Shown here: piece by piece, positions 10,723 through 17,842 of the stretch
How positions within the stretch are numbered: the first letter of the stretch is position 1
Layout of the letters: each line of letters starts with the position of its first letter
Assembly: GCA_951406725.2 (NCBI GenBank)
Contig: OX597829.1
Span: 32,922,001-32,986,000 of the forward strand
Source of the DNA: Octopus vulgaris
Lineage: Eukaryota
DNA length: 64,000 nt
Direction of reading: 5' to 3'
The notes under the pieces: model-generated
The model's input: only the letters and a program-made list of their open reading frames with translations
Told to the model about the DNA's origin: nothing
Database searches by the model: none
Translations under genes and position numbers: made by a program

Positions 10723-10761
10723 AGGCACATGAGTGGCTGTGTGGTAAGTAGCTTGCTAACC
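10723..10761 (+). mobile_element. 5' head of tRNA-derived SINE (A-box half), split from its body by the inserted array
   Basis: gagtggctgtgtggtaagtagcttgctaacc; continues at 17458 as aagtagcttgctaaccaaccacatggttccgggttcagtccc. Confidence 0.85.
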
Positions 10762-11355
10762 TCGACATGTTTTTTGGCAGCTGCCAGTTGTGAGGTGTTT
10801 CAACGTGAATTGTTGAACTTTTGACTCGACTACAGGTAAGCGTTTTGTATTTTTGGGAGCTTAGTGAAGTTTATTGCTTGCATTTAATGTTTTTAGCATT
10901 TAATATTTTTTAGCAGATAATAAACTCCACTTTGCTCCAGATATAATTTTTCTGCCTGTTGTCGAGTGTAAAGACTCACTTTGCAGTGAGAATTGTATTT
11001 TTGAAGCGGCGTAGTCCGTCTGCAAAAATTGTTTTTGAAATTGTCTTTGTGTTATCCACGGGAATTACCAAGGAGTACCAAGGATTATTTTATCAAGAAG
11101 TTTTACCAGTTGAACATTTGGCCTGGAGTACCATTTTTTGGCCGAAAAATGTGAAAAGAAAAAAACAGAAAAAATTAATTTCTTTGTGTGGATTTGAACT
11201 CTCTTCCTCCGTCTATCATTTATTTTTAAAAGAAAAAGAACTTTTTTTGAACTGCTATTTCTAATTTTGTTTCTTCCCTTCTGTTGTGTTTTTCATTCAC
11301 CTTTTTGTGTCTTATTTACTTTATTACATTTTGAACTGTTTTTAAACCTTACGTT

Positions 11356-12541
11356 ATGGCAAAGAAATTCACTGTGTGGGAATTGACACCTCCCAAAAAA
11401 TATTTGAATGAGCTAGATGAAAAACCATGGTGCTGAGGACATACTCAAAGTCGCTCGACACCATAGCAGTCTTCCCAAAGGCTACTATTTTAAACGAGCT
11501 GGCAGACTACATGCCAGCCGTTAAATATATTGCACGGGGAGTTAAATACGCAACGGTTTCGTTGCTATTTGACTCCCCTAAAGCAGCTTGCGAATTTGCA
11601 AGCCAGCCCATTGAGGGCAAACAAATATTGTTTCTCCCAAATTACAAGGGAGAAAAATTGTTGAGAGCTTGGATCTGCGGCTTACCACCAGGCGTTGAGC
11701 CCGAGTGGATAGAGGACTCTATCCGCCAGGGCTTGGATGGTAGCAGTTCCAAGCTACTGAACGTAAAAGTACAGCCTGTGGCTGATTGGGAGGGGTCAAA
11801 AGCTGTTTTGACCCTATGGACCCAGTCAGCCAAAAGTCTGGTTTTTCCGGACTTTTTGAGGATGGCCAGGTCCAAGTATCCGGTGATGTTTGAGGGACGA
11901 CCCCCAAATGTCACCTGTGCCTGGAGACCGGCCACATTAAGAAGAACTGCCCCAGGGACCAAAGTAGGATCCTGGAGAAGTTGATATCGGAACCTCTCCC
12001 TGCCCCCCAAATGGAGGGAGAGAAACAGTACGAGGAAGCGGTGACTTCCTCAACGAGAAAACGAAAAGTGGGGAACAATGGTGACCCACTAAAAGACCTG
12101 GAAGCTACGGGAGAAAGAGTGGACCCGGCGTGTGCAACACCGGAACCTCAACCTCCCGTGGTCCACAGTAAAAAGAAAAAAAGAAAGAAGAGAAACGGAA
12201 CGCTGCCAGCTGATTGTAACATGCAGACGGCATGTCCCATGTCTCCTCCGGCGCTTGTGTATCCGGAGAAATATTATGTAATCCTCTTCTACAAAGGACG
12301 AATATTAGAAAATGAAACACGTAAAATGAGGAAGAGAAGCCAATGGGAGGGACTTCGGTCCTGCATGGAGGATCCCAAGTGGCCTTTGCAGCTGGCTGCG
12401 GAGGTCCTATTCCATAACGATCGGTGCAGGATCGAGAATTCTCTCCCGGAGGAGTCCTTTCAATTTAAACCTGTATGCGGGGGCCTGACAAGGAACGATT
12501 GCGTCAATAAGGCAAGAGCGTTCATCGGCCGGGTAACGTGA
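11356..12541 (+). pseudogene. gag/ORF1p-like protein (~395 aa when repaired) with CCHC zinc knuckle; two frameshifts
   Basis: ATG 11356 (MAKKFTVWELTPPKK); joins ORFs 11427-11984 and 11981-12541; CHLCLETGHIKKNC at 11909-11950 in the -1 frame. Confidence 0.8.
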
Positions 12542-12611
12542 ACCTGTTTTTGTATTATATTGAGATAGAAGTTTATTGCCTCTGGAAACATTTTTGAATT
12601 TGTAATTTGTA

Positions 12612-12712
12612 AAATTTGGAATTTTTGTGAAATTTTGGAATTTTTGTGAAATTTTGGAATTTTTGTGAAATTTTGGAATTTTTGTGAAATTTTGGAAATT
12701 TTGTGAAATTAT
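12612..12712. repeat. 19-bp tandem repeat (aattttggaatttttgtga) x~5 in the unit A 3' UTR
   Basis: Direct periodicity. Confidence 0.9.
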
Positions 12713-12882
12713 TGAAAAAAGAACAATGTCTCAGAGAAGCGGAAGTCGGCGGGCGCTTTCGTCTTCTCCCATCACCATCTTCATTCCATCACCATCATTC
12801 ATTAATGTCTATGTCCAGCCCGTAGCTACTATCTGTGTACTGCCCTTGTGGCAAATTAAATAAAATAAAGTAGCTTCTTACC

Positions 12883-14909: not shown

Positions 14910-14925
14910 AAGTAGCTTGCTAACC

Positions 14926-15324
14926 ATCGACGTGTTCGGACGTGTTTTTTGGCAGCTGCCAGCTGTCACGTCTTTCGACATGAAATGTTGAATTTTTGAA
15001 ACTCGACTACAGGTAGGCATTTGTTGAATTTTATTTAGGGGCTTAGTGAAGTTTATTGCTTTGCATTTAATAATTTTTAGCAAGTAATAGACTTCACTTT
15101 GCTCCGGACATTTTTCCTGTCTGTGGTCGAGTGTAAAGACTCACTTTGCAGTGAGAATTGTGTTTTTGAAGAGGCGTAGTCCCTCTGCAAAAATTAATGT
15201 GTTTTGAAATTGTCTTTGTGTTTTCCACTGGATTTACCTCGGAGTACCAAGGATTCTTTTTGCAAGTTGTTTTACCAGCTGGACATTTGGCCTGGAGTAC
15301 CTTTTTTTGGCCGAAAAAAGAGAA
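14926..15324 (+). mobile_element. ORF1-only retroposon, unit C (5' UTR only, ends at an internal A-rich tract)
   Basis: Matches the first ~400 nt of units A and D; followed by degenerate target aagtagctccctaact. Confidence 0.75.
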
Positions 15325-15340
15325 AAGTAGCTCCCTAACT

Positions 15341-17457
15341 GTCGCCAAAGTCGCACGTGTTTTTTTTGGCGGGGAGTTGTTGCTGTTTTAATGTCACGTC
15401 GTTCGTCATGAAATATTGAATTTTGAGGCTCGACTACAGGTAGGCATTTGTTTTATATTTTTGAGGGCTTAGTGGAGTTTTTGCTCTGTATTTAATATTT
15501 TTCAGTGAGTAATAGACTCCACTCTGCTCCGGACATTTTCCTGCCTGTAGCCGCCTTTACAGACTCACTTTGCAGTGAGAATTGTGTTTTTGGAAGAGGT
15601 GTAGTCCCTCTGCAAAAATTAATGTGCTTTGAAATTGTCGTTGTGTTTTCCACTGGCTTTACCACGGAGTACCAAGGATTCTTTTTGCAAGTTGTTTTAC
15701 CAGCTGGACATTTGGCCTGGAGTACCTTTTTTTGGGCCGAAAAAAGAAAAAAGAAAAAAAAAATTAATTCCTTTGTCTGGATTTGAACTCTCTTCTTCGA
15801 GCTATCATTTATTTTTAAAAAAAGAACTTTTTTGAACTGCTATTTCTAATTTTGTTCCTTCTCTTCTGTTGTGTTTTTCATTCTCCTTTTGGTGTCTTAC
15901 TTTATTTTATTACATTTTGAACTGTTATTGAACTTTATGTTAACATGGCAAAGGAATTTACTGTGTGGGAATTGACACCTCCCAATAAGTATTTAAAAGA
16001 GCTGGAGGAGAAGACCGTGGTTTTGAGGACTTATTCGAAGTCGCTCGACACCATAGCAGTCTTCCCAAAGGCTACCATACTGAACGAGCTGGCGGATTAC
16101 ATGCCAGCCGTTAAATTTATCGCATGGGGAGTGAAATACACAACAGTTTGGTTGCTATTTGACTCCCCAAAAGAAGCTTGCGATTTTGCAAGCCAGCCCA
16201 TTGAGGGCAAACAAATATTGTTTCTCCCAAATTACAAGGGGGAAAAATTATTGAGAGCCTGGATCTGCGGCTTACCACCCGGCGTTGAACCCGAGTGGAT
16301 AGAGGATTCTATCCGCCGGGGTCTGGACGGTAGCAGTTCCAAGCTGCTGAATGTAAAAGTACTGCCTGTGGCTGATTGGGAGGGGGCGAAAGCGGTGTTG
16401 ACCCTGTGGACCCAATCAGCCAAAAGTCTGGTTTTTCTGGATTTCTTGAGGATGGCCGGGTCCAAGTATCCGGTGATGCTTGAGGACGCCCCGCCAAGTG
16501 TCACCTGTGCCTGGAGCCTGGACATATCAAGAGGAACTGTCCCAGGGGCCGTGGTGGTGCCCCGGAGCATGAAAAGGAAAAGGTGCCCGATGCCCCCTCA
16601 TTGGAGGGGGAGACGGAAGTGGTGGAGGAAGTTGCCTCCACGAAAAGAAAAAGACAGGTGAGCAACAATGGTTGCTCACCAAAGAATGTACAGACGGAGG
16701 AGGAGGATAGCGACCCCCCGCGTCTGCCGACAGAGCCCCCCGGGCTAGCATCCTCTGAAAAAGAGGAAAAAGAGAAAAAGAGGTCGGACGGCTGATGTTT
16801 CTGGGTCGCTGACGGAGCCGCGGGTGGGACGTGTGCCACCCGCAGACAGGGCTCCGTCAGTGGGAAGTGTGCCACTGACGGATCAGTGTGAGGTCCCTTC
16901 CTATGAAGAGGAGTTGTTTATCCTCCTTTACCACAAGGGAAGAAAGGTGGAAAAATTTTTTAATGGCTTGGGTGACCGAGAACGTATGGCCAAGGTCGGC
17001 TCAAGTAGTCCGTTATGGCCTCAGCAGGTGGCTGCGGAGGTAGTAACAGAAAACATGTTATCAAGGGTCGCAGCGACCTTTGACAGGAAAGAATTTACTT
17101 TTCTCTTTGCAGGCCTCGACTTGTCGTCGCAGAGTTGTCTGCAGGCGGCAAGTCACTTTGCTTCGGGGACCTGACAGGGAGAATTGTTGTGAATTTATGT
17201 GCCGCCCTTGTGGCAAATTAAATGAAAGAAAGAGGTTAATTGCCTCATGTGAAATTTGTAAAAGTTTGAAATTTTTGAAAACAAGATTTTTGAACTTATT
17301 GAAAAAAAGAACATTGTCTTAGAGAAGCGGGGGTCGGCGGGCACTTTCGTCTTCTCCCATCACCATCTTCATTCCATCACCATCATTCATTAATGTCTAT
17401 ATCCAGCCCGCGAAGCTACTCTCTGTGTACTGCCCTTGTGGCAAATTAAATAAAATT
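15341..17457 (+). mobile_element. ORF1-only retroposon, unit D
   Basis: ORF 15945-17174 frameshifted; knuckle CHLCLEPGHIKRNC at ~16499; divergent C-terminal half; conserved 3' end. Confidence 0.85.
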
Positions 17458-17842
17458 AAGTAGCTTGCTAACCAACCACATGGTTCCGGGTTCAGTCCCA
17501 CTGCGTGGCATCTTGGGCAAGTGCGTTCTGCTATAGCCCCGGGCCGACCAATGCCTTGTGAGTGGATTTGGTAGACGGAAACTGAAAGAAGCCTGTCGTA
17601 TATATGTATATATATGTATATGCGTGTGTGTGTTTGTGTGTCTGTGTTTGTCCCCCTAGCATTGCTTGACAACCAATGCTGGTATGTTTACGTCCCCGTC
17701 ACTTAGCGGTTCGGCAAAAGAGACAGATAGAATAAATACTGGGCTTACAAAGAATAAGTTCCGGGGTCGATTTGCTCGACTAAAGGCGGTGCTCCAGCAT
17801 GGCCGCAGTCAAATGACTGAAACAAGTAAAAGAGTAAAAGAG
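17458..17842 (+). mobile_element. Body of tRNA-derived SINE (B-box half, internal (TG)n, AAAAGAGT tail)
   Basis: ggttcagtccc B-box-like motif; homologous copy at 37332-37705. Confidence 0.85.

Follow-up and report, generated by a model that had tools for sequence, protein, structure and literature searches.

ORF1-only retroposons stacked in the tRNA-like head of an octopus SINE, and a site-sharing LINE as their likely partner

Introduction

A stretch of 64,000 nt of the Octopus vulgaris genome (assembly GCA_951406725.2, contig OX597829.1, positions 32,922,001 to 32,986,000; all of it is referred to as the window) contains a short interspersed element (SINE) whose head and body are separated by four consecutive units, A to D. 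What are these units, why do they lie at this very point of the SINE, and what brought them there? The original prediction, made from the window sequence, described them as retroposons that carry only the first open reading frame (ORF1) of a long interspersed element (LINE) and use the SINE as a landing site. Following the units through the 2.8-Gb genome, we consider it very probable from sequence that they are old, non-autonomous, protein-coding retroposons of the type that lacks long terminal repeats (non-LTR), which still give rise to young copies. A sequence-specific L1/Tx1-type LINE would move them in trans; this LINE encodes an apurinic/apyrimidinic (APE) endonuclease and a reverse transcriptase (RT), and shares their insertion site.

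Organization of the stack

The predicted layout was confirmed. Units A-D are co-oriented and diverged, with identities of 74.4-89.5% (A-B 75.8%, A-D 82.5%, B-D 74.4%, C-D 89.5%), and the stack is flanked by the A-box-like (10734-10744) and B-box-like (17489-17498) motifs of the SINE. The 16-mer said to recur at every junction was found, exactly or as a variant, at all five (10746, 12868, 14910, 15325, and 17458). A motif search allowing up to 3 mismatches returned five matches in the window vs 0.57 expected, and 0 of 100 shuffles reached five. Four of the matches are junctions of the A-D stack, and the remaining one (37332) is part of a second stack; the junction at 12868, which has a 1-nt deletion, was identified by reading the sequence.

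The number and content of the units had to be corrected in part. A, B and D are full units of 2.0-2.1 kb, whereas C is only a 399-nt piece of the 5′ untranslated region (UTR), with neither an ORF nor a 3′ end. The proposed single CCHC-knuckle ORF was recognized in A, B and D by a weak Pfam zf-CCHC match, under the curated cut-off, but each of these ORFs is read in three frames (two frameshifts each, mostly at or near homopolymer runs), and intact ORFs exist only elsewhere in the genome. The features of the stack, all on the + strand, are as follows.

10724..10745, +: 5′ part of the SINE tRNA-like head; A-box-like motif at 10734-10744, insertion point 10745/10746
10746..10761, +: junction 1, target duplication with element-borne target mimic
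10762..12867, +: unit A, ORF1-only retroposon; ATG 11356, frame breaks near 11421 and 11894-11918, stop 12541
12841-12853, +: unit A 3′ hairpin
12868..12882, +: junction 2, a 15-nt variant that recurs at loci such as L007, L010 and L034
12883..14909, +: unit B, ORF1-only retroposon; ATG 13488, frame breaks near 14012-14024 and ~14290-14330, stop 14673
14883-14895, +: unit B 3′ hairpin
14910..14925, +: junction 3
14926..15324, +: unit C, 399-nt 5′ UTR piece lacking an ORF and a 3′ hairpin; its end is an internal A-rich tract
15325..15340, +: junction 4, variant with three mismatches
15341..17457, +: unit D, ORF1-only retroposon; ATG 15945, frame breaks near 16484 and 16750-16795, stop 17174
17431-17443, +: unit D 3′ hairpin
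17458..17845, +: junction 5 (original target) and remaining SINE; B-box-like motif at 17489-17498

Each unit is nearer to a copy elsewhere in the genome than to its own stack-mates. The nearest relatives outside the stack are 94% identical over 1164 nt for A, 84% for B, and 87% for D. We also considered a fixed polarity of stack growth and rejected it, as the nearest-relative identities gave no consistent 5′/3′ age order and varied with sampling. The junction of unit C is of a type unique among the loci compared, and may be explained by priming at an internal site, by a template jump or by a deletion. Inside unit D, as at L064 and L074, we observed a second copy of the 3′ terminus (17198-17230), as if a new 3′ end had been added behind an old one.

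Insertion site specificity

The joined, empty target was found as 53,949 exact 33-mer occurrences genome-wide, in agreement with the claim that an abundant SINE is entered between its Pol III A and B boxes. A second head variant, with AAGAAGC, accounted for 11,867 exact 21-mers; as patterns of 33 and 21 nt were used, the ratio of the variants is only bounded by these counts. With ARAGORN at -ps70, 26 of 29 empty heads were tRNA-like, compared to 41 of 290 shuffles. At -ps80 the counts were 6/29 and 10/290, at -ps90 there were none, and at the default setting no tRNA was reported in the window. We call the head degenerate because Rfam gave no tRNA match to the one SINE copy submitted, and the best label for the target appears to be a degenerate, tRNA-derived SINE that is high-copy and dispersed. 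The named octopus SINE families OK, OR1 and OR2 were reportedly described by Ohshima and Okada in 1994. At L042:3990-5627, we also noted a tandem array with a ~185-nt period, composed of the target SINE head and the start of its body.

Insertion flanks were first read at 30 loci on many chromosomes, taken from the 40 best matches to the last 138 nt of unit D. Seventeen of them ran into the SINE body, ten into the 5′ end of another element, and three into other sequence, which started partly similar to the target. A family-wide pattern of the ORF1-only-type 3′ end, which may take in a few older autonomous ends, had 801 exact matches, and 609 of these were followed by AAGWAGC. Random flanks, which would have spoken against sequence-specific insertion, are thus rejected. 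Among the first 100 ends listed, 16 lacked the exact motif; six represented the same site in mutated form, two lay elsewhere in, or were rearranged at, the same SINE, and eight were off-site, seven of the latter still beginning with AAG or AAAG. No true tRNA gene was apparent among the 20 non-matching flanks read, although no test was aimed at tRNA-gene insertions.

Element subfamilies also differ in the SINE variant that they occupy. In a by-hand count of the same 100 ends, one end type was on AAGTAGC in 33 of 33 cases, and two others were on AAGAAGC in 8/8 and 7/7. All 18 AAGAAGC flanks that were read turned out to be that SINE variant or a stack junction.

Solo full-length copies sit between a SINE head and body, while truncated copies bear target duplications of ~0-18 nt, microhomology and inverted flank pieces. 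Footprints of this kind are the mark of target-primed reverse transcription. With their constant 3′ end, variable 5′ truncation and target duplications, the units are non-LTR retroposons moved by this process.

The 16-mer at the junctions

The question of whether the 16-mer is an intrinsic terminal repeat of the element received a different answer for each end. The 5′ and 3′ 16-mers were compared in 34 solo full-length insertions, and agreed in at least 16 letters in 12 cases, in 8-12 letters in 20, and in fewer in two. The 3′ copy matches the local SINE variant and is missing at off-target sites. In contrast, the 5′ variants go with the element subfamily at unrelated loci, regardless of the local SINE variant, which indicates that the 3′ copy is target, and that the 5′ copy combines a short duplication (8-12 nt) with the element's own first bases (the last 6-8 nt), which mimic the target. 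An intrinsic repeat is therefore excluded for the 3′ copy, and for the 5′ copy only in part. We infer a role of the mimic in guiding how the 5′ end is joined, and its origin from an upstream duplication that was captured.

Several observations concern the 5′ region. At the unrelated loci L031, L037 and L046, an A replaces the SINE's T just before the 5′ junction, hinting that the element RNA can start upstream of the duplication. In a young ORF1-only subfamily (L043, L045, L033, L034), the first ~200 nt of the 5′ UTR are repeated two to three times, like promoter monomers. Most full-length units have a splice-donor-like motif (AG/GTAGG or GTAAG, the slash marking the exon end) ~75-105 nt past the 5′ junction; a loose match was present within 160 nt in 53 of 56 full-length units, in the window at 10834-10841 with equivalents in B, C and D, and near 4108 in L112, a copy of the partner LINE described below. 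No spliced copy was seen, and the motif could be a U1 site helping transcription.

The ORF1-only protein

Intact ORFs of 393-415 aa were found in 15 distinct copies elsewhere in the genome. As had been predicted, no RT or endonuclease accompanies them: none of 96 segments from the ATG to the 3′ end (duplicates included) had similarity to ORF2. A programmed -1 frameshift at the knuckle was considered and rejected; A, B, D and the copy at 28 kb share the phase of the shift, but their lesions differ, and the 15 distinct copies are open there.

Pfam returned only the weak zf-CCHC match for ORF1. The first, full-length model was poor (pLDDT, the predicted local distance difference test, of 49), and its Foldseek matches served only as a lead. 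In the model of residues 1-206 (pLDDT 86), two β-α-β-β-α-β domains and the knuckle are visible. The best structural matches were RNA recognition motif (RRM) domains, with the La RRM on top (Z 9.3, root-mean-square deviation 2.9, 82 residues), so the protein is predicted to comprise two RRM-like folds and a CCHC knuckle, next to a C-terminal domain of ~90 aa. The ratio of nonsynonymous to synonymous substitution rates (dN/dS), calculated over the N-terminal 205 columns, was 0.17-0.22 in all bins from dS 0.03 to >1. With a value of ~0.2, ORF1 appears to be under purifying selection.

In a word search, the sole protein relative was an Octopus sinensis protein, and of ten profile-search representatives looked up, the eight that could be named were all octopod proteins. 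In a tree of 30 ORF1s, from which six near-duplicate rows had been left out, 12 ORF1-only rows and the O. sinensis protein grouped together (100/99) and were separated by a long branch (1.8) from all four autonomous ORF1s analysed. Compared to ORF1 of the partner LINE, the protein is 25% identical over 195 residues (E 1e-16). This low identity, the purifying selection and the long branch together argue for an old lineage and not a recent deletion of the partner. ORF1-only subfamilies are mosaic, with N- and C-terminal halves swapped, and their 5′ ends are mosaic as well. Judged by their sequence, units A, B and D can be assigned to the ORF1-present type of non-autonomous LINE, with a single ORF homologous to LINE ORF1 that is apparently kept by selection, and no endonuclease or RT.

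A candidate partner LINE

The original prediction called for a Tx1-type partner. A family-blind search for filled sites gave 706 exact matches, and among the 30 fetched ones a 3′ end of another kind came to light; a 5.45-kb LINE lay upstream of it, again between SINE head and body. It has two ORFs, with ORF1, an APE endonuclease, RT and a C-terminal zinc finger (Exo_endo_phos, RVT_1, zf-RVT). Its closest solved structure is human L1 ORF2p (E 1e-66), with R2 proteins at 1e-19; no other LINE RTs were matched in the PDB, and by this comparison the RT is nearer to the L1 group than to other clades. Thirteen copies were selected because their ORF2 is long and open, and every one of them ends at the SINE site. 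Of 108 exact 3′ ends, 100 were followed directly by the motif, well above the >20% of flanks by which target preference of Tx1 families is defined in PMC4494074, and three of four further ends checked were the same site in mutated form. None of the 120 matches listed, or of the ten clusters looked up, was a named Tx1 protein; from its architecture and specificity, the LINE likely belongs to the Tx1 clade.

Both kinds of elements have in common a terminal TGCC-N5-GGCA hairpin (fixed stem, variable loop) and an A-rich end, and mixed stacks of autonomous and ORF1-only units were found at four loci (L174-L177). ORF1-only copies that are 98-99% alike coexist with partner copies 98-99.7% alike, suggesting that both were active together. 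Given the same site, the shared hairpin and the mixed stacks, the 5.45-kb young LINE is the likely partner that moves the ORF1-only units in trans. Contigs of four runs, presumed to be RNA, cover both element types, but transcription, strand and starts cannot be deduced from them.

The young partner was on AAGTAGC in 100 of 100 cases, which has a chance of at most 0.006 if AAGAAGC makes up at least 5% of the sites. Either the endonuclease changed along with the SINE, or age and the state of the sites shape the pairing of elements with variants.

A second abundant SINE occupied the same site in two of the 30 filled sites (L104 and L108; insert just before position 1504, match orientation). Its tail resembles the 3′ ends of the partner and of more distant L1/Tx1-type LINEs (L181, L182), which suggests that LINEs of this group may move it. 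The insert of L104 is chimeric, with the ORF1-only hairpin at its end.

Proposed mechanism and alternative explanations

In the mechanism that we propose, the element would be transcribed from its own internal promoter, as insertion puts kilobases between the A and B boxes of the SINE, and the ORF1 protein, with two RRMs and a CCHC knuckle, would package its RNA. The partner's ORF2 protein would recognize the shared 3′ hairpin and A-rich end. Judging from the flanks, its endonuclease would nick the bottom strand opposite the boundary between GGT and AAGTAGCT, just 3′ of the A box, reading a core of ~7-9 nt and using near-cognate sites about once in ten. Target-primed reverse transcription would then produce the footprints seen here, namely 3′ ends that are constant, 5′ truncations that vary, inversions, and 0-18-nt duplications, and full-length copies would join their 5′ end via the short element-borne target mimic. 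The motif is regenerated at every junction, and autonomous and non-autonomous elements accumulate there in stacks of the A-D kind.

Several points weigh against this explanation. The 3′ ends of the units and the partner are similar only in the last ~35-40 nt, and their ORF1s are merely 25% identical. A closer autonomous parent might have escaped notice, as the scoring covered only 150 of the 8,958 ORF1 candidates. The youngest dN/dS bin (nine near-identical pairs) gave 0.56, and dN/dS pairs are not independent. Stacks occurred at 8 of 26 independent loci (an estimate from 30 loci), vs ~4% or less under equal site use; regeneration of the motif therefore permits stacking, but does not account for it alone. 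Open chromatin at the element promoter, a better A-rich context and template jumping are candidates for the excess. We must also note that we infer trans-mobilisation, transcription and translation of the units from sequence.

The low ORF1 identity could also mean that another, unsampled autonomous LINE with a closer ORF1 mobilises the ORF1-only elements, or gave rise to them by deletion, leaving the 5.45-kb LINE a mere co-tenant. The long branch of 1.8 from the four autonomous ORF1s and the fraction of candidates scored fit such a scenario, as does the presence at the SINE site (L111, L114, L174) of older autonomous families whose 3′ ends are different. We regard it as quite improbable, since RT-bearing inserts identified in the family-blind sample of 30 filled sites were only of the P0005 lineage, none of the 96 segments retained a trace of ORF2, and the near-identical copies of both kinds point to co-activity. 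Three more distant LINE copies (L181-L183), checked for a closer ORF1 parent, had 24-31% identity and were not at the SINE site. It is hardly credible that the block arose through a single local tandem duplication, or represents an array of host genes or an artefact of assembly. Frameshifts mostly at homopolymers might be sequencing errors, but hundreds of dispersed copies have the same ends, target duplications are present, the window itself holds a second stack and a truncated copy, and every unit of A-D has closer relatives on other chromosomes, which refutes this reading.

Two further alternatives concern how the stacks and their site came about. Stacks could stem mainly from single events (RT jumping between RNAs, or read-through copying) or from unequal crossing-over at junction repeats, and not from successive insertions. 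Their frequency, many times the equal-site-use expectation, agrees with this, as do mosaic ORFs and 5′ ends, taken as template exchange between subfamilies, and homogeneous arrays, such as L032 with units 98.9-99.8% alike or seven equal ends 2 kb apart on C1; some homogeneous arrays (L032) probably did arise by local duplication. Yet the window units are only 74-83% alike and unequally distant from their nearest relatives, no fixed order by age was seen, and the target motif, including the SINE-derived first 8 nt, stands at every internal junction, so we find single events unlikely as the main source. Slightly less unlikely, though still doubtful, is that the SINE is an incidental sink, in which the endonuclease reads a short motif, ancestrally perhaps that of a tRNA gene, and the SINE supplies most copies. 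In its favour, no more than the initial 3-7 nt of the motif are shared by off-target sites, a similar motif at another place in the SINE body has received one insertion, and the SINE is very abundant. Against it stand the pairing of subfamilies with SINE variants, the restriction of the young partner to AAGTAGC despite 11,867 exact AAGAAGC heads, and the 5′ mimic of the SINE's next bases. Such a sink is compatible with trans-mobilisation by the site-sharing LINE, and bears only on the degree of SINE-specificity.

Building on trans-mobilisation, we tentatively envisage a long-lived system of three layers, in which the LINE, together with its ORF1-only satellite lineage, became specialised for the SINE's Pol III promoter and followed changes in the SINE sequence (older elements on AAGAAGC, young ones only on AAGTAGC), with a captured target mimic at the 5′ end serving to secure full-length joining. 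Occupied junctions might be preferred, making stacks self-reinforcing places where subfamilies recombine; the strongly diverged ORF1 protein of the satellite might work in cis to recruit the partner's ORF2 protein, and with each insertion a SINE promoter would be disabled.

Comparison with known systems

HeT-A forms head-to-tail arrays with its partner and is added at the ends of chromosomes, and HAL1 is not known to be site-specific. As listed in PMC5786205, HeT-A (Jockey clade), HAL1 (L1 clade) and Ag-Sponge (CR1 clade) are ORF1-only non-autonomous LINEs which, similarly to the octopus units, have one ORF1-type protein, no endonuclease or RT, and rely on an autonomous LINE; none of the cases named there is Tx1-derived. 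The octopus units differ in being apparently of L1/Tx1 type, at an endonuclease-defined internal sequence with target duplications.

Tx1 LINEs that target other transposable elements have been reported in PMC4494074, namely Tx1-Mar with SINEU-3 in crocodilians and Tx1L in Xenopus, the targets being Mariner-N4_AMi, Tx1D, and some LTR and Harbinger elements. There too, a LINE enters another transposable element, a non-autonomous passenger uses the same site, and tandems sandwich a target site duplication. In those cases, however, a DNA transposon or LTR element is entered, and a SINE without coding capacity is the passenger, whereas in the octopus the insertions fall into a tRNA-like SINE head, between the A and B boxes, and the passenger has a conserved ORF1 of its own. 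Keno (U2 small nuclear RNA) and Kibi/Koshi (microsatellites) among the target-specific Tx1 families (PMC4494074), and the Dada DNA transposons in tRNA genes (PMC8869645), likewise make sequence-specific use of a multicopy, low-harm site. In those accounts, the sites are host RNA genes or simple repeats and not a SINE, and no ORF1-only satellite is described.

A 2026 repeat annotation of O. vulgaris lists 13 active L1-Tx1 families with 421 insertions (PMC13282606), and its text contains nothing on targets, stacks or ORF1-only families. The partner may be among these active families, and the library of that work may hold both families. In the literature searched, which excluded Repbase, Dfam and subscription journals, no SINE-targeting LINE or Tx1-derived ORF1-only family was found; each part has a precedent, and we could not find the combination described.

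Other features of the window

Two further members of the family lie in the window.

28263-29285 (28247..29301 with duplications), +: 5′-truncated family copy at an off-target site
34541..37706, +: second stack, in the AAGAAGC SINE variant; head to 34563, junctions at 34564, 36349 and 37332

The second stack consists of two units with internal deletions, followed by the SINE body. The truncated copy is flanked by a 16-nt target duplication (28247-28262 / 29286-29301) and is inserted in one of several helicase-like remnants (27300-28250 with 29300-29410; 32365-32720; 47975-48274), in which a DAPGGTGKT-type motif is readable and which may be of Helitron/PIF1 type. In addition, we noted a near-perfect inverted repeat at 38980-39482 (244-nt arms, 97% complementary, 15-nt spacer), possibly a miniature inverted-repeat transposable element (MITE) or fold-back element, and a tandem array at 62089-63256 with a 340-nt unit (95-100% alike).

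Significance

The octopus units would add a site-specific member of L1/Tx1 type to the short list of ORF1-only retroposons. In octopus genomics, the ORFs (P0004) carry the annotation of uncharacterised host proteins, and repeat masking should include them. The partner, a compact APE-type LINE with ~93% on-motif insertion, may be relevant to targeted gene insertion. In this system the SINE head appears as the dedicated landing site of a LINE, with a parasite of a parasite residing inside a third. As intact young copies of all three players are present in one genome, it would be testable why a non-autonomous element retains ORF1, how the endonuclease specificity relates to a changing target, and how the 5′ junctions are made.

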